Counted from the stretch's first letter, positions 21,031-30,620 are shown. The stretch is DNA of 32,000 nt from Limnobacter sp. (GCA_964229025.1 CAXRAE010000008.1:146094-178093); one strand, 5' to 3'. The notes: generated by a model from the letters alone, not told the origin. Program-made: numbers and translations.

Positions 21031-21297
21031 GTGGGTTTAAATGATGTCACCTCCCTGATTCGCTCCCGTCGGCGCGAAATGGGGTTGACCCAAAAGCAAT
21101 TGGGCGATTTGTTGGGCATTGACCAACGCACGGTGTCTTCCCTGGAGAAAAACCCGGGTTCCATCAGCGTGCATCGCCTGTTCGCCGTGCTGGGTGCTTT
21201 GCAGGTGGGTTTGTACGCCTCAAACGACCCGCGCGACGAAAGCAATTTGTCCCGGGTCACGGTAGACCAGTTGTTTAGAAATGCGAAAATTGTTTAA
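21031..21297 (+). CDS. XRE-family HTH protein, HipB-like, with no adjacent kinase
   Basis: LIRSRRREMGLTQKQLGDLLGIDQRTVSSLEKNPGSISVHRLFAVLGALQVGL runs parallel to E. coli HipB (LVRQQNGWTQSELAKKIGIKQATISNFENNPDNTTLTTFFKILQSLELSMTL, recalled from memory). GTG start. Confidence 0.75.
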   Translation: MGLNDVTSLIRSRRREMGLTQKQLGDLLGIDQRTVSSLEKNPGSISVHRLFAVLGALQVGLYASNDPRDESNLSRVTVDQLFRNAKIV

Positions 21298-21435: not shown

Positions 21436-24400
21436 ATGGATTTCGTTCAAATTCCCGTTTTTGGTCAGTCGGTCAGGCCTGGTCTCGGTTTTCGCTTTCG
21501 TGGCAATTACTGGGCATTTTTCGAACGGCGCACGAAATTGTCGCCCTGGCTGGCCTTGCACCGCGAATCCATCAACGACACCCTGTTGGACGAGTTGCTG
21601 TTCCACGGTTTCCCAAAAAGCAGAACGGGCCAAACTGTGGATTGCAAGGTGCTCACGCATTTTGGTTTGATCTACGGCCCTTTGTACCGCGATGGTTGGC
21701 TGGTTGACCGCACCGAGCGCCAACGCACAGCGGTGTTCACTGGCGACTTGCAAGTGGTCAAGTTGCCGATATCCGACAGGCCTGAAACCAACCTGCTCGA
21801 CCCCAACAGCATTTACTGGGTTAGCGAAGAAAAACTGTTGAACCATCCCGCAGGCAGTGCGGAGCACGAGCGCGGCCAGGCGCTGGTGGAAATGGCCAGC
21901 ATCTTGCTGGCGCGCTGGCGCGAGCATGATCGCTTGAACCTGGAATTCAAGGCGCAAAGCCGTGTGCGTGAACTGCTTGAAGAGGGCAAGGCGATTGGCC
22001 ATGGCGTGGGCTCTGCAGCCGTGGATTTTGTGCAGGGGCTTTGGGATTTGATCAAGGTCACTGTGGAGTTCACCGCCACCGCAGTGAAAGCAAGCTGCCG
22101 TGGTTTGAAAAAAATCGTGCAGTCCAACTTTGCAGAAATTCGGCAAATGTTGTTGGCCGCGGGCATGCAAGCCTATCAAAGCGCCCAGGAAATGATCGCC
22201 GCCGTGCAAGAAGGGTTGCGCCTGTTCAATCTGGTTTGCCAGGATCGCTTGTTGCGAGCCGGTATTTTCGAATTTCTTGACGGGTATTCGGAAAGCGTTC
22301 CCCACCTTCGCCGCCTTCACAACATGGCCGGTGCGGTGTTTGTCATCGGTATTGAGGTGCTGCTGGCGCTGGCCACCATGGGCGGCAGTGTGGTGGCTGC
22401 GGCTGGGCGCATGGGTGTGAGGGTAGGGCCGTTCACCATGAAATCCATTCGACACCTGGCCCAGTTTGCCAAAGCCAAAGGCAGCGAATTGGCTCAGAAA
22501 ATGCGAGCCGACACCGGTGGCGCGCCCGCTGCCCCGCCTAAAAAAGCAGCAAACACAGCAGCCAACCCAACAGCCAACTCAACAGCCAACAACTCAACCA
22601 ACCCCTCATCCAAAACCGAGGCAGATTCATCCACCAAGCCAGCCGGGCCGCTTGAATCAACAGGCGCAAGTGGCCCGCGTGCGGAGAAAACACCCACGCA
22701 GGGCGAACCCATCAGCATGATCAATGGCGAAGAGCTGTTGCAACTGGTGGATTGCAGTTTGCCCGGTTTGGTGGGCATGAACTGGCAGCGTACCTATCGC
22801 AGCAGCATCGCCGAGCAGGGCTTTAATGCAGGGCTGGGTGCCGGTTGGGCGCACCCATTGGCGCAACACATTGAACTGAATTCGAACGGTTGCAATTACA
22901 TCGACGATGAAGGCCGCACGGTTTACTTCAAACCCTTGAACGTGGGGCAGCAGTGCACCAACACCAGTGAATTTCTAACGCTACGGCGCACCGGGCAGCA
23001 CACCTATCGCCTTCAAGCCAGCCATGGCTTGGGCTGGGCCTGGTATTTCGAGGCATTTGACCAAGGGCACGCCTCGCTTGCGCGAATTGAAGATGCCTTT
23101 GGCAACACCCTGCGCATTGAATACAACGGCGATGGTCGGCCCGCCTGGGTGCACAGCAGCCAAGCCAGCTGGGCGCTGCATTACAACGCACAAGGCTTGT
23201 TGGCCCATATCGCACAAGTGGCACAACCCCTTGATGTGGCTGGCTTGAATCAATGGGTTCTGGTTCAGTACCAGTACAACGAACTGGGGCAGCTGGTGGC
23301 CGCCACCGACGCTGCCGGGCACACCGAACGGTACGCTTACAATGCCAAGCACGTGCTGGTGCAACGCACCCTGAAAAGTGGCTACAACATTCACTTCGAG
23401 TGGGAAAGCTACCGCGCCGACGGCACGCCACTGCCCAATTCACGCTGCGCGCGCCAATGGGGCGACCCGGTGCAGGGCCAGCCCACCTACCACTACCGCT
23501 TTGAGTGGGATTTGACAGGCACAGGAATAGGCACTCGTGGCGCCGACGGCATGGTGAATGCAGCCATTGATAGCCGTGGCGCGCGCACCGAATACGAATT
23601 CAATCACCAAGGCTTGTGCACCCGGCAACGCAGCCCCGAAGGCGGCAGCACCCGCACCCGCTACAACGATCAAGGCCAGGCCATTGAGCAGGTGGATGAA
23701 CTGGGCCACGCCCAGCGCTGGGTGTACAACAGGCAGGGTTATTTGGTCGCGTATGTGGACAAACTGGGCCACACGCACCAACTGGAATTAAATGCGCAGG
23801 GCCAGGTGCTGCGCCACACCGACCCGGCAGGCCAAAGCCGCAGCTACACCTACACCCCAGAAGGCCTGTTGGCCAGCCAAACCGATGCCACCGAAGCCAC
23901 CACCCGCTACCGATACAACGAGCTTGGCTTGCCGTGCGAAATCATCAACCCATTGGGCCAAAGCACACGCCTGTTGTACAGCGCACAGGGGCAAATACAG
24001 GCCCAAACCAATGCGCTGGGGCACAGCACCACCTATCAATTTGATACGTGGGGCCGCTTGGTTGGTGTCAGCAACCCCATGGGGCGCACCGCCTCGTATG
24101 CCTACGATTTAATGGGCCGGTGCACCCGCGCCAGCAATCATGAAGGCTTGTCCACACAATACAGTTACACCGAACTGGGGCAGATCGCGAAAATCGTCGA
24201 CCCCACCGGGCGTAGCACCATTTACGAATACGCAGACCGTTTAAGCCAGCCCACCGCGCGTATTGATTCGCAAGGCTTCAGGCTGCATTACCGCTACGAC
24301 AGCGAACGCAACCTCGTCGAGCTCCACAATGAAAACGGCCAAAGCTGCCATTTTGAGTACGATTTGGCCGAGCGCCTGGTTAAAGAACGCGGATTCGACG

Positions 24401-26406
24401 GCCGCGTGCAAACCTATCAATACAACGCAGCAGGCCACCTGCAGGAAAAGCAGGATTGGGGCGTGTTGGGTGGCAGCGCCCCGGGCGAAACCGTCTTTCT
24501 GAACGACATTCCAGCCCAGCCCGTGGCCTTCACACGGTATGAACGCAATGCCCACGGCCTGCTGCTTAAAGCCATTCACAGCGACGGCGAAGAATCCACG
24601 TTCACATACAACGCCTTGGGCCAACTGGTGCAAGCCAACAACGCCCACCGTCCACTGGCTTGGGAAGTGGATCCAGAAGGCCGGGTGCTGGCTGAAATTC
24701 AAGACCAACACCGCATCGAACACAGCTACAACCCAGCGGGTTGGCTCAAACAAACCCAATGGCAAGGCATGGGCGGTGAAGCAAAAGGGGCGCTACCCTC
24801 GAGTGCCTTGGGTTTGAATTACAACGCGCTGGGGCAGCTCAGTGAAATCAATCTGAATGGCGAGCTACTCGCCCAGTTTGAACGCGACACCTTGGGCCGC
24901 GAAGTGAAGCGCAAACTGGCCAACCAGGTGCAAAGCCAAAGCCTGTACGACCCCCAAGGCCGCCTGGTGGGGCAGATCAACCGAAGGGGCCGCAACACTG
25001 GGCAAGTGGATGGCAGCGGGCCGACTTTGTCTCGCAGGCGCTATGTGTACAACCAGCGCAACCAGTTGGTTCGCATCGATGATCAAAACCACGGCAGCCA
25101 CTTCTACCAATACGACCCGCTCGACAGGTTGCGCACCGTTGAAGGCCCCAATCCAGAAGCCTTCCTGTTCGACCCCGCCAGCAACCTGTTAGAAGCGCTG
25201 GATGGGCAAGACGCCACCGATGCGATGGCAGCGAAATCGCTGCCTGAACCCGACAGCCCCAATGCCCGCAGGCCGCAACAAGCCCCGGGCAACCGGCTGA
25301 AACGCCAAGGCAACCGCCGCTTTACATACGACGAGCGCGGCAACCGCATTGAAGAAATCATCGAGCGCGGCCCAAGGCAAGGGCAGGTAACCCGCTACCG
25401 CTACAACGCTCAAAACCAGTTGATCGAAGTGAATGTGGGAGGTGTGGCCACCCGCTACGCTTACGACGCACTGGGCAGGCGAATTTCCAAAAGCAGTGAA
25501 CACAGCACCACCACCTTTTACTGGAATGGCGATGTGTTGCTGGGTGAAGTCAATGAACAGGTGATTGGCAACGCCGACCACAAATCGCCACGGCCCAGCC
25601 GCACCTATTTATTCGAACCCTTCAGCTTCACGCCACTGGCGCTGATTCAAAACGGTGAGGTGTTTCACTACCACACCGACCACATTGGCACACCGCGAGA
25701 AATCAGCAACGCCAATGCTGAAATAGTGTGGTCAAGCACCTTCAAAACCTACGGCGCACTGGCCGTGGCCCACGTGAACGAAGTAGCCAACCCGCTGCGC
25801 TTCCAAGGCCAATATTTCGACGAAGAAACAGGACTACACTACAACCGGCACCGTTACTACGACCCCAGCTGCGGCCAGTTCACCACCCAAGACCCGATCG
25901 GGTTGTTGGGTGGAATGAACGCCTACCAGTACGCACCGAACCCGCTGACATGGGTGGATCCGTGGGGGTTGAGTTGTAAGGAGTACGTCCACAGAAAAAC
26001 TAGAATTGATAGCAAAGTTACAGAAATAGAACAACAGCCACTACCGCAGAGCGTAAAAGATAGCTTTGAGGATGGCGAATATCGCACTGTAGTCGCAAAC
26101 GAGGATATTATTTTGTATCGCGCATATGGCGGTAATGCAAAAGCCTCTGGCGGTTTTGCTACTACGCTTCCAGTACAAAATAGAATTCAAGCGAAGCAGG
26201 ATTTAGCGCTGCTACCTGAGTGGAAAAACTCTCGGACCAATGAAGCAGTAATTCGTATTCCAAAGGAAACAGTCCTGAATGTCGGTAAAGTTGCACCCCA
26301 GCGCACCGCTTCGGGCACCGTTCTTCAGGGGGGTGCAGATCAGGTTCTTTTGCCGCAAAATTGGCCCTCGGAGTGGATTATTGATTATTATCCAATAAGA
26401 CCATAA
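21436..26406 (+). CDS. Rhs/YD-repeat polymorphic toxin (1656 aa): unknown N-terminal domain, low-complexity linker, Rhs shell, C-terminal toxin tip
   Basis: One continuous frame. A plug-like segment GEPISMINGEELLQLVDCSLPGLVGMNWQRTYRSS is followed by many YD repeats (YxYDxxGxL type: RYAYNAKH, RTRYNDQGQAIE, YTYTPEGLL, RYRYNELGL, YAYDLMGR, YAYDALGRRI). The conserved core end is LRFQGQYFDEETGLHYNRHRYYDPSCGQFTTQDPIGLLGGMNAYQYAPNPLTWVDPWGL (DPWGL at 25957-25971). The start codon is uncertain because there is no clear SD before 21436. Confidence 0.95.
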   Translation: MDFVQIPVFGQSVRPGLGFRFRGNYWAFFERRTKLSPWLALHRESINDTLLDELLFHGFPKSRTGQTVDCKVLTHFGLIYGPLYRDGWLVDRTERQRTAVFTGDLQVVKLPISDRPETNLLDPNSIYWVSEEKLLNHPAGSAEHERGQALVEMASILLARWREHDRLNLEFKAQSRVRELLEEGKAIGHGVGSAAVDFVQGLWDLIKVTVEFTATAVKASCRGLKKIVQSNFAEIRQMLLAAGMQAYQSAQEMIAAVQEGLRLFNLVCQDRLLRAGIFEFLDGYSESVPHLRRLHNMAGAVFVIGIEVLLALATMGGSVVAAAGRMGVRVGPFTMKSIRHLAQFAKAKGSELAQKMRADTGGAPAAPPKKAANTAANPTANSTANNSTNPSSKTEADSSTKPAGPLESTGASGPRAEKTPTQGEPISMINGEELLQLVDCSLPGLVGMNWQRTYRSSIAEQGFNAGLGAGWAHPLAQHIELNSNGCNYIDDEGRTVYFKPLNVGQQCTNTSEFLTLRRTGQHTYRLQASHGLGWAWYFEAFDQGHASLARIEDAFGNTLRIEYNGDGRPAWVHSSQASWALHYNAQGLLAHIAQVAQPLDVAGLNQWVLVQYQYNELGQLVAATDAAGHTERYAYNAKHVLVQRTLKSGYNIHFEWESYRADGTPLPNSRCARQWGDPVQGQPTYHYRFEWDLTGTGIGTRGADGMVNAAIDSRGARTEYEFNHQGLCTRQRSPEGGSTRTRYNDQGQAIEQVDELGHAQRWVYNRQGYLVAYVDKLGHTHQLELNAQGQVLRHTDPAGQSRSYTYTPEGLLASQTDATEATTRYRYNELGLPCEIINPLGQSTRLLYSAQGQIQAQTNALGHSTTYQFDTWGRLVGVSNPMGRTASYAYDLMGRCTRASNHEGLSTQYSYTELGQIAKIVDPTGRSTIYEYADRLSQPTARIDSQGFRLHYRYDSERNLVELHNENGQSCHFEYDLAERLVKERGFDGRVQTYQYNAAGHLQEKQDWGVLGGSAPGETVFLNDIPAQPVAFTRYERNAHGLLLKAIHSDGEESTFTYNALGQLVQANNAHRPLAWEVDPEGRVLAEIQDQHRIEHSYNPAGWLKQTQWQGMGGEAKGALPSSALGLNYNALGQLSEINLNGELLAQFERDTLGREVKRKLANQVQSQSLYDPQGRLVGQINRRGRNTGQVDGSGPTLSRRRYVYNQRNQLVRIDDQNHGSHFYQYDPLDRLRTVEGPNPEAFLFDPASNLLEALDGQDATDAMAAKSLPEPDSPNARRPQQAPGNRLKRQGNRRFTYDERGNRIEEIIERGPRQGQVTRYRYNAQNQLIEVNVGGVATRYAYDALGRRISKSSEHSTTTFYWNGDVLLGEVNEQVIGNADHKSPRPSRTYLFEPFSFTPLALIQNGEVFHYHTDHIGTPREISNANAEIVWSSTFKTYGALAVAHVNEVANPLRFQGQYFDEETGLHYNRHRYYDPSCGQFTTQDPIGLLGGMNAYQYAPNPLTWVDPWGLSCKEYVHRKTRIDSKVTEIEQQPLPQSVKDSFEDGEYRTVVANEDIILYRAYGGNAKASGGFATTLPVQNRIQAKQDLALLPEWKNSRTNEAVIRIPKETVLNVGKVAPQRTASGTVLQGGADQVLLPQNWPSEWIIDYYPIRP
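22507..22710 (+). repeat. Low-complexity Ala/Pro/Asn/Thr/Ser linker inside the Rhs ORF with imperfect short tandem DNA repeats
   Basis: The protein reads ADTGGAPAAPPKKAANTAANPTANSTANNSTNPSSKTEADSSTKPAGPLESTGASGPRAEKTPTQGEP. DNA at 22546-22606 reiterates cagccaac-type units. Confidence 0.8.
25972..26403 (+). other. Rhs C-terminal toxin domain (residues 1513-1656), family unassigned
   Basis: It begins immediately after DPWGL. Composition switches to visibly AT-rich from about 25980. The sequence is SCKEYVHRKTRIDSKVTEIEQQPLPQSVKDSFEDGEYRTVVANEDIILYRAYGGNAKASGGFATTLPVQNRIQAKQDLALLPEWKNSRTNEAVIRIPKETVLNVGKVAPQRTASGTVLQGGADQVLLPQNWPSEWIIDYYPIRP. Confidence 0.85.
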
Positions 26407-26411
26407 ATGTC

Positions 26412-26672
26412 ATGAATATTTCAATTGTCATAAATCAAATTGAGCAAGCCTTAGTTTTACTAAGGAAGCATCATGAATCATCTAGTTCATGGTTTGCTAA
26501 AACGATTGCCTTGTATGAAAAGGCTTTGCAAAGTCCGACAGATAAAAACTTTAAAGAATTACTAGGTTTGTCAAGGGCTTATTTAGAAACAGCAAGTGAT
26601 TGGAGTCAAGATTTCTTTATTGAAACCGATAGAACAGAGCAATTGGTGAAAACTTACCTAAACGCTCGATGA
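26412..26672 (+). CDS. Putative cognate Rhs immunity protein (86 aa)
   Basis: It starts 5 nt after the rhs stop on the same strand. It is AT-rich like the toxin tip and small. The call rests on the canonical rhs-CT/rhsI arrangement. No family recognised. Confidence 0.7.
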   Translation: MNISIVINQIEQALVLLRKHHESSSSWFAKTIALYEKALQSPTDKNFKELLGLSRAYLETASDWSQDFFIETDRTEQLVKTYLNAR

Positions 26673-26689
26673 AACCATAAACCCTAGCG

Positions 26690-27761
26690 CCTTCAGGCCA
26701 CAGCCGGACCCGGGTAACAGGCTGTAGCGGCAAGGAAGACCGCGCTTTACATGCGACGCACTTGGCGGGCAGGTATGCAAGGAAAGTGAAAGCGCCGATG
26801 GCACCAAAGCCACCACCACCTTTTACTGGAATGGCGATGTGCTGTTGGGTGAATTCAATGAACAGGTGATTGGCAACGCCGACCACAAACCGCCACGGCC
26901 CAGTCGCACTTACTTGTTTGAGCCATTCAGCTTCACGCCACTGGCGCTGATTCAAAACGGTGAGGTGATTCACTACCACACCGACCACATTGGCACACCG
27001 CGAGAAATCAGCAACGCCAATGCTGAAATAGTGTGGTCAAGCACCTTCAAAACCTATGGCGCACTGGCGCTGGCCCACGTGAACGAAGTGGATAATCCAC
27101 TGCGCTTTCAAGGGCAATATTTCGACGAAGAAACAGGGCTACACTACAACCGGCACCGGTATTACGACCCCAACTGCGGCCAGTTCACCACGCAAGACCC
27201 GATTGGGCTGTTGGGTGGAATGAATGCCTACCAGTACGCACCGAACCCGGTGACGTGGGTGGATCCGTGGGGGTTGAGTTGTAAAGAGTGGAAAGATCTC
27301 AACCCGGGGCTATCCACTTCGAGGCTTAATGAAATACTGGCTACCCCAAAAGGACAAAGGCCAGATCCTTCTACGTACCTATCAAAAACTATACTCGACG
27401 TCACAAGGCGTTTTTTGATTCGGGCGCGGCAAGGATTCAACCTTCTGCGCCAACTGGCACAATTGGCCGGACTGAGACATGGGTTTTTCCGAAATCTGTA
27501 GTGTCCGATGCAGTTTCGTCTGCTAATGGAGACCCAAGAAAACTTGAGTCTTTATTTGGGCTTGATGCAAGCTATTTAGGTACAGCGCCAGTATTGGTTG
27601 ATATCCCAAATCCACAGAATGTGCGCATCCCGTCGGGCAATGAGTTTGGGGCGAACGGTTTCTGGCGACCTGGCGGTCTCACTTATCCAGGACGAATTCC
27701 AGAAGCCGTTATTGACCCAGTGCTGGAAGGCGAATATCTGGTATCTCCTGTATTCAAATAA
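26690..27761 (+). pseudogene. Orphan Rhs C-terminal cassette (core 3' end plus an alternative toxin tip), promoterless, with an internal YD-repeat deletion and a frameshift
   Basis: Positions 26811-27285 align without indels to the main gene at 25506-25980 (offset 1305). By hand I count roughly 30 mismatches, with an identical 88-nt run at 25664-25751 versus 26969-27056. Weaker homology starts at about 26690, and an in-frame TAG lies at about 26724. DPWGL lies at 27262-27276. The new tip is split between the 26839 frame (stop 27499-27501) and the 27501 frame (open from 27333 to 27761). Confidence 0.85.
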
Positions 27762-27772
27762 ATGGTGAAAGT

Positions 27773-28024
27773 ATGACAGTGGTTTTTGAAGGTAATGGGG
27801 TGAAGTTGATAGAAAAGTCCGGAGGTTTTTACCTCAGGTATGATGCAGGCTCTCATCAGGTTGAAATTCGAGAGGATATGGTATCCAGGGATGAGGCTGA
27901 AAAAATAAAGTCTGGAGAAACGAAGTTAATCACTCAGGTTTTGATGAGAATTCAGACAGAGCTAATTAATTCAAGGATCGATCCGCATAAAAGTAATCTG
28001 AGTTCGGGAAGGCACCAGCTTTAA
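27773..28024 (+). CDS. Putative immunity protein for the orphan toxin tip (83 aa)
   Basis: It starts 11 nt after the orphan tip stop, on the same strand, and is AT-rich. The call is positional. No family recognised. Confidence 0.65.
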   Translation: MTVVFEGNGVKLIEKSGGFYLRYDAGSHQVEIREDMVSRDEAEKIKSGETKLITQVLMRIQTELINSRIDPHKSNLSSGRHQL

Positions 28025-28025
28025 A

Positions 28026-28295
28026 TTGTCAACAAATGGGCTGAATGATCAAGTTAGGATATTTCAGCAACTCAGGGCGGCTGATTTCGTATTTTCCGCT
28101 GACTACGAATGGTCGCCATCAGAATTATTTGAATTGTTTCGTGACCAAGGTTCGCTTTAGGGCAACTATATAAGGATTGTATGGATTGATAGCTCACGTA
28201 ATACCTTGGGTATGCGCCCGCAATTGATGGGCGGGGGAAATCAAATTTATGTTCCAAAAGTTGACGCGGGGTTAATTAAGCCAAGTGTTCCATAA
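28026..28295 (+). pseudogene. Decayed small ORF interrupted by an in-frame TAG
   Basis: The frame from TTG 28026 reads STNGLNDQVRIFQQLRAADFVFSADYEWSPSELFELFRDQGSL, then TAG (28158-28160), then GNYIRIVWIDSSRNTLGMRPQLMGGGNQIYVPKVDAGLIKPSVP and TAA (28293-28295). Both halves look protein-like. Confidence 0.4.
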
Positions 28296-28590
28296 AGATT
28301 TTTTACTGTTGAAGCAGTGGTTGGCAGATGTTGGGTGCGTGGTTTTTTATTTGGAGAATCCGGTGCTTGGGCGGCCCGGCGATAATCAATATGAGTATTT
28401 GAATGCCGCATTGAAAGATGGTATCGGAATATTTGAATTCTCCGATGATTTAAGAATTGAAATATCTGGGCCGATCAAGCTTGATATTTCAGGGTCTTAC
28501 ATTGAGCTTCATTCAATTGAAATTCTTGGACTAAGTTGGCGTGGAAGCTTCGTTGAGTTGCGTCACACATCACTTCGCATAGATAAATAA
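28285..28590 (+). CDS. Hypothetical 101-aa protein (possible orphan immunity gene or the 3' part of the decayed upstream ORF)
   Basis: GTG-initiated ORF overlapping the end of the previous frame. It is AT-rich and carries no recognisable motif. Confidence 0.4.
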   Translation: MFHKDFLLLKQWLADVGCVVFYLENPVLGRPGDNQYEYLNAALKDGIGIFEFSDDLRIEISGPIKLDISGSYIELHSIEILGLSWRGSFVELRHTSLRIDK

Positions 28591-28666
28591 CCACGTGTAC
28601 CGTCATAGTGTTTGTTACAGTTGCGAGTATTAAAGCGAACGCCGTAAGGAAAAGGTTTCCTCGCCG

Positions 28667-28775
28667 AAGCAGTTATCGAGCGTGGCCCACGCCAAGGGCA
28701 GGTAACCCGCTACCGCTACAACGCTCAAAACCAGTTGATCGAAGTGAATGTGGGAGGTGTGGCCATCCGCTACGC
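28667..28775 (+). repeat. Relic fragment of an Rhs core (third copy)
   Basis: Positions 28675-28775 align to the main gene at 25360-25460 (101 nt, 4 mismatches by hand count). This region encodes IERGPRQGQVTRYRYNAQNQLIEVNVGGVA(T/I)RYA. Homology fades on both sides. Confidence 0.85.
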
Positions 28776-28917: not shown

Positions 28918-29154
28918 GTGGAAAGTGTCGAACTCCTAACAGAATTGATTGCCGAGGGCAAAAAACAAGGGCTGACACAGTCCAAGTTGGCCACGGCCGC
29001 TGGTATTCACCCGGTCACCTTGTCCAAAGCGCTTAGCACCGGTCGCTACGAAATAGCCACGCTTCAGAGTTTATGCCGCGTTCTGAACATGAAAGTGATT
29101 CTTACTCGGAATAATGATATTTCAGAGGGATTGCGCAAGGGGGATCTGTTTTGA
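28918..29154 (+). CDS. XRE-family HTH antitoxin-like protein (HipB position)
   Basis: KKQGLTQSKLATAAGIHPVTLSKALSTGRYEIATLQSLCRVLNMKVIL is an HTH_3-type motif. Its TGA (29152-29154) overlaps the TTG start (29151) of the kinase gene. Confidence 0.8.
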   Translation: MESVELLTELIAEGKKQGLTQSKLATAAGIHPVTLSKALSTGRYEIATLQSLCRVLNMKVILTRNNDISEGLRKGDLF

Positions 29155-30620
29155 GCTGGAAAGATCGCTTTGCCGTCGTATGGACTCGCGCCTCGGGTGC
29201 GCCCGAAAAACTCGCAGACATGGTTCTCACAGAGACTGAACTGCGAGTGACCTTTAGCGACTCCGCAAGAAAAAACGGGACTCCAGGATTGAGCATGCTT
29301 CACGATATGGGCGGGGACTCCATTCTGGTCTACTCTAGAAATGGTTCGCGCGTATTGCCACCACAACTGCGAGCACTGTTGCCTCCAGATGTAGCCCTGA
29401 ACCCCCAGCGCAGGATCCTGTTGGATCTCATGTTGACCAGCGGCCGATCAATCACCGGATTGCCAACAGAGCTGCAGCAGTGGGAGATGCTCGTATTTGC
29501 CGGCCGAAACGCAGTTGGTCACATCGATGTGTTTGAAAGCGACCGCGATGCCCAGCACTACTACGCGCAGAATGATGGATCCGTGCAACCAGCAGGTCGC
29601 TCGGCGCTCAGGGATCTTAAGCTGTGGGGCGCGTTTAGAAAGTATGTCGCCCAGAGCCTACCCAGCGTCGAGGAAGACCAACTCAAAGCGACCTTGGGAC
29701 CCACGCCCGGTGTCGCAGGCTTCGTCCCCAAGATGTTGTGTACCATTGAGCTGGAATCGGACGGATCATGGGCAGGTAAAACCATCGGCAAGCCGGGGAC
29801 CGGGGAGGGCGGTCGAGCTTCCGTTAGCGCCTTGGTCAAAATTGAGCAGAACAGTTACCCCGGGCTGCTACAGCTAGAGTCGCTGGCTTACGAGTACCAT
29901 AGGAAAGCCGAGTTATTTGATGTCCCACGCACCTGGTTGCTGGAAACGACCGTCAATGAAGAGCCTCTGATTGCCTTGGCGTCCGAGCGCTTTGATCGGG
30001 ATCACGATGTACCGCTTCCGCTGGAGAGTATGTACAGCATTTTGCACACCGGTAGCCCTACGAAGTACCTGTGCAACACAGACGGTTCAATCGAAAAAAT
30101 CGGAGAAGTGCTCAACAAGCTGAGGTTCCCCTATGCTGAGGTAGAAAGGTTTTATGCCCAATTTGTGATGTCGCTTCTGACCGGCAACGGGGACCTGCAT
30201 ACCGACAACCTTGCAATTCTCACAGCTCCGGGCAAAAACGCAATGAAGCGTTATCGCCTCTCCCCCCTGTTTGACCCTGCACCTATGCGCGCATACCGAG
30301 GCCGTCACAGCCACAACGTGTTAAGTGCTTTGCCTTTTGGCGGTGGAGACCCCTCTGAAACGACCGGGTCAGCGACTCCTGTAGATCTGTTTGACAGGAT
30401 TATGTCTGTAGCCAAGGCCATGGGTATCAAACACACCAAAGCGAAGTCATTGGTGATGCACCTTTACCAGGTAACCGAACCTTACCTTAACGACGCCATC
30501 AAGCTGCTTCGATCAATCCCGGCAGACAGAAGACCCAACAGCCTGGCACCCGATATCCAGGGGTTCGAGACCACGGTACAAGAGGTGCGCAGCGCCATTG
30601 CAAAAGGCTGGGCTGGGTGA
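29151..30620 (+). CDS. HipA-family Ser/Thr kinase toxin-like protein (489 aa)
   Basis: It has a HipA N-terminal coupling-like start, a P-loop-like PGVAGFVPKM (compare the AGxQxK motif), catalytic GNGDLHTDNLAIL (compare GNxDxHxxN) and LSPLFDPAP (Mg-binding Asp region). Confidence 0.8.
   Translation: MSWKDRFAVVWTRASGAPEKLADMVLTETELRVTFSDSARKNGTPGLSMLHDMGGDSILVYSRNGSRVLPPQLRALLPPDVALNPQRRILLDLMLTSGRSITGLPTELQQWEMLVFAGRNAVGHIDVFESDRDAQHYYAQNDGSVQPAGRSALRDLKLWGAFRKYVAQSLPSVEEDQLKATLGPTPGVAGFVPKMLCTIELESDGSWAGKTIGKPGTGEGGRASVSALVKIEQNSYPGLLQLESLAYEYHRKAELFDVPRTWLLETTVNEEPLIALASERFDRDHDVPLPLESMYSILHTGSPTKYLCNTDGSIEKIGEVLNKLRFPYAEVERFYAQFVMSLLTGNGDLHTDNLAILTAPGKNAMKRYRLSPLFDPAPMRAYRGRHSHNVLSALPFGGGDPSETTGSATPVDLFDRIMSVAKAMGIKHTKAKSLVMHLYQVTEPYLNDAIKLLRSIPADRRPNSLAPDIQGFETTVQEVRSAIAKGWAG

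Follow-up and report, generated by a model that had tools for sequence, protein, structure and literature searches.

A predicted TNT-type NAD(P)+ glycohydrolase tip and its putative immunity protein at an Rhs locus of Limnobacter sp.

Results

An intact Rhs gene with a 144-residue C-terminal tip

We analyzed a 32,000-nucleotide stretch of DNA from Limnobacter sp. (GCA_964229025.1 CAXRAE010000008.1:146094-178093), hereafter called the window, in which an intact Rhs polymorphic toxin gene of 1656 codons was identified on the plus strand. According to the list of open reading frames (ORFs), the gene occupies positions 21436..26406, with its stop codon at 26404-26406. The encoded protein ends in a 144-residue toxin tip, S1513-P1656 (25972..26406 including the stop codon, plus strand), which is predicted here to be a TNT-type, Tne2-like NAD(P)+ glycohydrolase (NADase) domain. 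The next gene on the same strand (26412..26672) starts 5 nt after the Rhs stop and encodes an 86-residue protein (MNISIVINQIEQ...), the putative cognate immunity protein. An earlier reading of the bare sequence (the original prediction) had proposed a 144-residue tip behind the motif DPWGL together with an 86-residue immunity candidate. Both were recovered exactly, the tip extending from S1513 (25972) to P1656 (26403) and the candidate at 26412-26672.

A Pfam scan detected fourteen RHS repeats in the Rhs protein, with E-values of 1.1e-70 for RHS_repeat, 2.7e-19 for DUF6531 (residues 423-498), and 1.5e-11 for the RHS core (residues 1409-1443). The octapeptide PISMINGE at residues 425-432 (22708..22731, plus strand) resembles the N-terminal Rhs autoproteolysis motif of the PVSMVTGE/PVYVASGE type (PMC13285283), and the protein may be cut at this site. 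At the other end, the canonical C-terminal cleavage motif of Rhs proteins is DPxGL-x17-DPxGL (PMC13285283), and the corresponding autoproteolysis signature DPIGL-x17-DPWGL was found at residues 1486-1512 (25891..25971, plus strand). Its second half, DPWGL, covers residues 1508-1512 (25957-25971), and the tip is predicted to be released just after it. The locus hence combines a repeat shell, an RHS core, a cleavage motif, a variable tip, and an adjoining downstream immunity gene, which together make up an Rhs toxin-immunity module. Furthermore, the tip (45%) and the 86-residue ORF (34%) are poorer in GC than the Rhs core (58%), a pattern typical of tip/immunity cassettes that have been exchanged.

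No Pfam domain, and no PAAR domain, was detected in residues 1-420 of the Rhs protein (21436-22695). By eye, this region contains a hydrophobic stretch and a linker rich in Ala, Asn, Thr, and Pro ahead of PISMINGE. It may represent an uncharacterised delivery or adaptor-binding domain.

The tip belongs to a widespread family of C-terminal toxin domains

Scans of the tip and the immunity ORF against Pfam and NCBIfam returned no match beyond chance level (e.g., TraF, E 0.04-0.07). Searches of PDB sequences by phmmer and by profile hmmsearch gave no match either, the sole hit being a spurious one to ribosomal protein uS13 (E 0.25). The earlier statement that the tip falls in no known nuclease, deaminase, or ADP-ribosyltransferase (ART) family was thus borne out at the level of sequence. 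A word-indexed search yielded 39 homologues of the tip, and a profile search covering 1.8 billion cluster representatives (50% identity) matched 1579 proteins at E<=1e-3, of which 762 also passed E<=1e-10. In nearly all carriers the domain is located at the extreme C-terminus. The carriers comprise Rhs, LXG (type VII), DUF637/CdiA-like, and eCIS_core proteins as well as proteins with PT-HINT and PT-TG pre-toxin modules. Given its C-terminal placement on so many carriers, the family can be regarded as a warhead of polymorphic toxins. When species-representative genomes were scanned, it occurred mostly in Firmicutes (Streptococcus, Bacillaceae, Paenibacillus, and Clostridia), with further cases in Microbacterium and in Gammaproteobacteria, namely Pseudomonas, Vibrio ruber, Xenorhabdus, Photobacterium, and Marinomonas.

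Conservation was assessed over 149 domain sequences, using a tip numbering that starts at C1514, so that R49 is R1562, F61 is F1574, E90 is E1603, and Q123 is Q1636. R49 and P96 are kept in all 149 sequences, whereas single exceptions occur at Q123, G52, G104, and G119 (148/149 each). G59 and W83 are each present in 147, position 61 is F or Y in 147, and Q109, D122, and E90 are kept in 145, 142, and 139 of the 149 sequences, respectively. Every one of these family-conserved residues is present in the tip of the window. The codons are found at 26119-21 for R1562, 26155-57 for F1574, 26242-44 for E1603, 26299-301 for Q1622, and 26338-43 for D1635 and Q1636; W1596 and G1632 are further key conserved residues.

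The ordered motifs on which the original prediction was built were all located, namely LYRAYGGNAKASGGFATT at residues 1560-1577 (26113-26166), DLALLPEW at residues 1589-1596 (26200-26223), and the pair VLNVGKVAPQ (1613-1622) and LQGGADQVLLP (1630-1640). Their residues fill the columns conserved across the family: R49, G59, F61, A78, P81, W83, G104, Q109, G119, D122, and Q123. The Arg of LYRAYGG and the Gln of GGADQ had been put forward as catalytic candidates. The conservation of R1562 (149/149) and Q1636 (148/149) agrees with this proposal, and their roles are predicted from the sequence.

In the Xenorhabdus bharatensis locus (L067), a full Rhs gene carrying the tip family domain is followed by an orphan fragment (L067 7106-7930). 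Family similarity (38.5 bits) covers its N-terminal half as far as the E90 hairpin, whereas DUF6966 takes the place of its C-terminal part. The fragment is hence a chimeric or recombined tip.

The predicted fold resembles TNT-type NADases

We modelled the tip with AlphaFold2 on a 40-sequence alignment. The model is small and mostly beta, with a mean predicted local distance difference test score (pLDDT) of 90.9 and a predicted template modelling score (pTM) of 0.83. When it was compared with the PDB by Foldseek, the best match was Tne2 (6b12_A; E 8.3e-4, template modelling (TM) scores 0.62/0.73), followed by Serratia Rhs1CT (6xtd_A; E 3.7e-3, TM 0.58/0.63), Tse6 (4zv4_D and 4zv0_A; E 0.02-0.05, TM about 0.52), and the fungal NADases FoNADase and AfNADase (8r15 and 8pmr; E 0.06-0.09). 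These were the only matches with a probability of at least 0.8, and all others stayed below 0.1. No ADP-ribosyltransferase structure (C3, iota, or Tre-type) was among the matches of the tip, and the structure of CpnT-TNT itself was absent from the matches listed.

The entry 6xtd is the Rhs1CT-RhsI1 complex of Serratia marcescens Db10, in which Rhs1CT was shown to be an NAD(P)+ glycohydrolase and was proposed as Tne3 (PMC10539506). TNT, Tse6, Tne2, and Rhs1CT have been grouped as a TNT-like palm-domain family (PMC10539506). Because these fold neighbours have all been shown experimentally to be NAD(P)+ glycohydrolases, we read the tip as a probable TNT-type NADase, and its model displays the palm-domain fold of these toxins. 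The comparison with Tne2 and Tse6 that had been suggested at the outset therefore matched both, with Tne2 ahead, and the alternative of a new fold was not upheld.

Remote homology to Tne2 and correspondence of cleft residues

The link to Tne2 was strengthened by an orphan tip on a metagenome contig (ERZ27298225 k141_799908; L005, described below), which bridges the two families: it scored 25.8 bits with the hidden Markov model (HMM) of the tip family and found Tne2 (6b12_A) in the PDB at E 0.0016. An hhalign comparison of the tip family with Tne2 homologues plus this orphan tip gave a probability of 94.9% (E 4.4e-8) over tip residues 58-124. Homology between the tip family and Tne2 thus appears to be real, if remote.

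In this alignment, the tip residues G59-G60-F61 fall on G73-G74-F75 of Tne2, and G119-G120-A-D122-Q123 fall on G128-G129-V-Q131-Q132 (P0191 numbering). An essential aromatic residue, F330, has been described in Tne2 as the equivalent of TNT F727 and Tse6 W344, and Q387 as the equivalent of TNT Q822 and Tse6 Q413 (PMC6398120). As the gap between F75 and Q132 equals that between F330 and Q387 (57 residues), and no other offset fits an F and a Q, we infer that F75 is F330 and Q132 is Q387. On this numbering, F1574 and Q1636 of the tip would correspond to F330 and Q387 of Tne2. The corresponding Gln of Rhs1CT is Q1452, and this Gln is the sole strictly conserved residue among TNT-type NADases (PMC10539506).

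The tip therefore holds the conserved cleft Gln of TNT-type NADases at Q1636 and, through its alignment with Tne2 F75 and the inferred offset, their essential aromatic residue at F1574. It also contains the glycine cradle, consisting of G114 and then G119-G120-A-D-Q123. In TNT, the cradle is formed by G813, G815, and G818 ahead of Q822 (PMC6398120), and the G-x-x-x-Q spacing of the tip equals that of TNT G818-Q822 (PMC6398120) and of Tne2 G128-Q132.

The 86-residue protein is the putative cognate immunity

To examine what accompanies the toxin domain, the first ORF downstream of it was taken in 86 loci. In 75 of them this ORF fell into one BLAST cluster with the 86-residue ORF of the window, and in 77 it matched the immunity-family HMM, the ORF of the window scoring 72.8 bits; the loci range from Firmicutes to Gammaproteobacteria. 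Since a member of this family is the direct downstream neighbour of the toxin in 77/86 loci across phyla, we consider the family to encode cognate immunity, and the 86-residue protein is accordingly the predicted immunity of the Limnobacter tip. This places the immunity candidate of the original prediction within a family that directly follows the toxin in most loci.

Members of the immunity family are 84-108 residues long and share the motif G-x-x-R-A-Y-[LM]-[DE]...S-D-[YW]-x-x-P-L-L, which in the window reads LSRAYLETASDW and includes Arg55. A word-indexed search retrieved 7 close homologues of the 86-residue ORF, and the family has no Pfam or NCBIfam match. The immunities have diverged further (about 23% mutual identity) than the toxins (about 55%). 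The divergences of the two partners are correlated (Spearman 0.49, a value reached by 0/500 label permutations), with shared ancestry contributing to the correlation. Two independent metagenome contigs carry the intact ORF with 100% identity.

The AlphaFold2 model of the 86-residue protein is an all-alpha bundle of five helices (pLDDT 81.5). Apart from helical bundles of a generic or designed kind (best E 0.12), a fold search with this model retrieved nothing, and it matched none of Tni2, Tsi6, and RhsI1. A Tsi6-like immunity, which had been considered, thus found no support in this search. In the three solved NADase complexes, the active site of the toxin is occupied by a basic residue of the immunity protein, namely K62 in Tsi6, R153 in Tni2, and H131 in RhsI1 (PMC10539506). 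By analogy, Arg55 is a candidate for such an inserting residue.

A different partner was observed at five Microbacterium loci (L054, L061, L065, L066, and L073), where the toxin gene overlaps by 4 nt a downstream ORF of about 300 residues, which belongs to a separate family and stands in place of the helical protein of about 90 residues. This arrangement suggests an alternative immunity for the same toxin family.

Orphan modules downstream and surroundings of the Rhs island

Downstream of the immunity gene, self-blastn showed that 479 bp from the 3' end of the Rhs core recur at 26811..27289 on the plus strand, with 93% identity to 25506-25984. This repeat makes up the 5' part of an ORF at 26839-27501, which has a Pfam RHS match and constitutes an orphan Rhs C-terminal module. 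The repeat provides a recombination substrate for tip exchange. Three-frame translation showed that the orphan tip behind it is apparently frameshifted near 27400-27500, occupying 27290-27501 and continuing in another frame to 27761. The joined orphan tip (27290-27761) had no Pfam or PDB sequence match, and the orphan module had no NCBIfam match. It is followed by an 83-residue ORF at 27773-28024 (plus strand), a candidate orphan immunity gene.

The bridging contig L005 shares 95% identity with the window over 25650-27277, a span that takes in the tip, its immunity gene, and the beginning of the orphan module. Beyond window position 27277, it carries a different and intact orphan tip (L005 1079-2035). 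This tip, which matches Tne2 and the tip-family HMM as described above, occupies the position of the orphan tip in the window, so that the Rhs locus swaps related NADase-like tips between strains.

A second remnant of the Rhs core, 110 bp long and 93.6% identical to 25351-25460, was found at 28666-28775. It is preceded by a low-GC ORF of 101 residues (28285-28590) with no Pfam match, and the region 28285-28775 looks like a further decayed orphan tip/immunity module.

The island is flanked upstream by an XRE/HTH_3 gene (21031-21297) and downstream by a helix-turn-helix (HTH) gene (28918-29154) and a HipA_C kinase gene (29151-30620). The two downstream genes form a putative hipBA-like toxin-antitoxin pair, and a hipBA-type locus, or its immediate vicinity, may have been the insertion site of the island.

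Discussion

Taken together, we consider it likely that the tip is a TNT-type (Tne2-like) NAD(P)+ glycohydrolase toxin that is neutralised by the 86-residue protein. Starting from the architecture of the locus, the tip family, its fold, its residue conservation, and the toxin-immunity linkage, we propose the following model for delivery, catalysis, the roles of single residues, and inhibition. The tip would be made inside the YD-repeat shell of the Rhs protein, which would cut itself after DPWGL and so free the tip for delivery into a neighbouring competitor bacterium. There the tip would bind NAD(P)+ in the cleft of its small, beta-rich palm domain and hydrolyse the nicotinamide-ribose bond, yielding nicotinamide and ADP-ribose(-phosphate), so that the cofactor pool collapses and growth stops. 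F1574, in the GGF motif, may stack on the nicotinamide-ribose part, Q1636 behind the glycine cradle (G1632-G-A-D-Q1636) may position the ribose, and the invariant R1562 probably binds the diphosphate. The 86-residue protein would shield the producer by stoichiometric binding of the tip, most likely by blocking the cleft, possibly through insertion of Arg55.

Several observations weigh against this interpretation. Neither the tip, even at E<=1, nor any of the 40 family members at E<=0.1 matches PF14021 (TNT, formerly DUF4237). The Arg pair of the TNT motifs DRXG and QRXL is not clearly kept: R1562 in L-Y-R-A-Y-G has the R-x-x-G spacing of DRXG, with Tyr in place of Asp, and no alignment equates it with R757, while no Arg equivalent to that of QRXL (R780) is evident in the region K-Q-D-L-A-L-L-P-E-W, which by reading of the sequence has no conserved Arg. 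When the tip family was compared by hhalign with three Tne2 homologues alone, the register was unchanged but the probability fell to 22.6% (E 9e-4), and the tip HMM gave insignificant scores of 3-9 bits with the Tne2 sequence. We found no enzymatic or toxicity study of the tip protein or of any family member in the literature, and no PAAR, VgrG, or other type VI secretion system (T6SS) gene among the scanned neighbouring ORFs in the window. In addition, fold likeness alone is unable to tell a NADase from a transferase. In the alignments, R1562 and E1603 have no counterpart in Tne2, and for E1603 this absence likewise speaks against a Tne2-like enzyme.

A rival reading is that the tip is no pure NADase but an ADP-ribosyltransferase acting on a specific target (such as a protein, rRNA, or tRNA), as do the Rhs toxins Tre23, TreTu, and TreThr, which use the same delivery chassis as the tip protein. 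Rhs-borne ADP-ribosyltransferases are well documented, and the tip does contain an ART-like set of residues, consisting of the invariant R1562 after an aromatic residue (Y), T1576-T1577 after GGF, and E1603, kept in 139/149 sequences, at the start of a beta-hairpin. Moreover, 16 of 40 family members have sub-threshold matches to PF03496 (ADPrib_exo_Tox) near E1603 (best E 0.002), a further observation that counts against the NADase interpretation. These matches span profile positions of about 149-187, that is, the ExE beta-hairpin, against E-A-x-I-x-I-P-K-G-T in the tip, and many Firmicute members read E-A-E at the hairpin. However, all PF03496 scores remain below the gathering threshold (at most 16.2 versus 23.4 bits) and the tip of the window has no match. 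The ExE motif is not conserved, the positions two before and two after E1603 being variable (T-N-E-A-V in the window). Five NADase structures and not a single ART structure were among the Foldseek matches, and the strict GGxxQ with its glycine cradle is a signature common to TNT, Tne2, Tse6, and Tne3. We therefore regard a transferase as unlikely. The coexistence of the ART-like R1562 and E1603, the latter in an ExE-like hairpin, with the TNT-type GGxxQ has a further possible explanation, in which the family stands midway in evolution between the R-S-E ADP-ribosyltransferases and the TNT-type NADases. It would then move ADP-ribose onto a target in the cell, or act as both transferase and hydrolase, and its antidote would be an 86-residue helical immunity family that had not been described before; we hold this to be rather unlikely.

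It is also conceivable that the fold has been kept and the chemistry has changed, either to another NAD-consuming reaction (e.g., with ADP-ribosyl cyclase-type products) or to a non-NAD substrate. NAD-utilising folds have diversified repeatedly, as in the Tne1-5 families and ARC-tox, and W1596, Q1622, and E1603 are conserved specifically in this family with no assigned role. Nevertheless, the characterised TNT-type domains have all been reported to be strict NAD(P)+ hydrolases (PMC10539506) and the NAD-contacting residues are conserved in the tip family, which makes a change of chemistry quite improbable. Finally, the foreign GC content (45% and 34% versus 58%) and the decayed orphan modules downstream at the same locus could be taken to mean that a module gained by horizontal transfer has left the tip and its partner behind as an inactive relic. 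Yet the Rhs ORF is unbroken over 1656 codons with both cleavage motifs present, the tip retains all family-conserved residues, and the immunity ORF is intact and unchanged in the two metagenome contigs; a relic is thus extremely improbable.

Among the known NADase systems, the tip is structurally closest to Tne2, a T6SS NAD(P)+ glycohydrolase that forms the C-terminal domain of Pseudomonas protegens PFL_6209 (PDB 6B12). Both are C-terminal cargoes of interbacterial toxins with an adjacent immunity gene. On the other hand, their identity is only about 17-27%, the tip is carried by an Rhs protein and Tne2 by a non-Rhs PAAR effector (PMC10539506), and Tni2 is longer, containing Arg153 (PMC10539506), than the 86-residue helical bundle encoded next to the tip. 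In the strict sense, the tip is at most a candidate member of the Tne2 family. Two LXG toxins, E. faecalis OG1RF_12414 and Omicron of Listeria, are Tne2-like by structure prediction only, and may be members of the family described here.

Rhs1CT (Tne3, PDB 6XTD) is likewise delivered by an Rhs protein, is of similar size (141 versus 144 residues), has its immunity gene directly downstream, and has a conserved Gln near the C-terminus (Q1452, compared with Q1636). It nevertheless shares no sequence similarity with the tip that the PDB sequence searches could detect, and RhsI1 has strands and an inhibition loop with His131 (PMC10539506), whereas the partner of the tip is all-alpha. Tse6 (Tne1) of Pseudomonas aeruginosa (4ZV0/4ZV4) shares the palm fold, with an essential W344 and a conserved Q413 (PMC6398120). 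It is a PAAR effector needing EF-Tu (PDB entry title), and its fold scores to the tip are weaker than those of Tne2. Fungal NADases with a TNT domain are also among the fold matches. Tne5 of Pluralibacter, compared by description only, was set aside, given that its fold is described as alpha/beta and ART-like, having five helices as well as K1392/E1482, and the tip is beta-rich.

TNT of Mycobacterium tuberculosis CpnT, from which the original prediction started, has the same motif order as the tip, i.e., an Arg-containing strand, a G-x-aromatic motif, and a glycine cradle followed by Gln (G818...Q822 versus G1632...Q1636), although its PWFGQPGGG core is replaced in the tip. The proposal of a distant TNT-type relative is thus supported with respect to fold, remote homology, and residue conservation. 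The support does not extend to membership in Pfam TNT/DUF4237, and the nearest solved relative is Tne2 rather than CpnT-TNT.

The tip represents a family that has so far escaped curation, although the kind of toxin is well known, and its partner represents an immunity family that is new. Specialists would find little to surprise them here, as the likely mechanism is already well known. Should the activity be confirmed, the interbacterial toxins that deplete NAD(P)+ would gain one more sequence family, amounting to a further Tne group, and along with it a new small helical immunity family. The simultaneous presence of an ART-like Glu and a TNT-like Gln in one small domain would offer a handle on the divergence of hydrolases and transferases. 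The family spans T6SS-type Rhs, type VII secretion system (T7SS) LXG, CdiA-like, and extracellular contractile injection system (eCIS) proteins in Firmicutes, Actinobacteria, and Proteobacteria, and curated models for the toxin and immunity families would annotate many toxin-immunity pairs that are now hypothetical.

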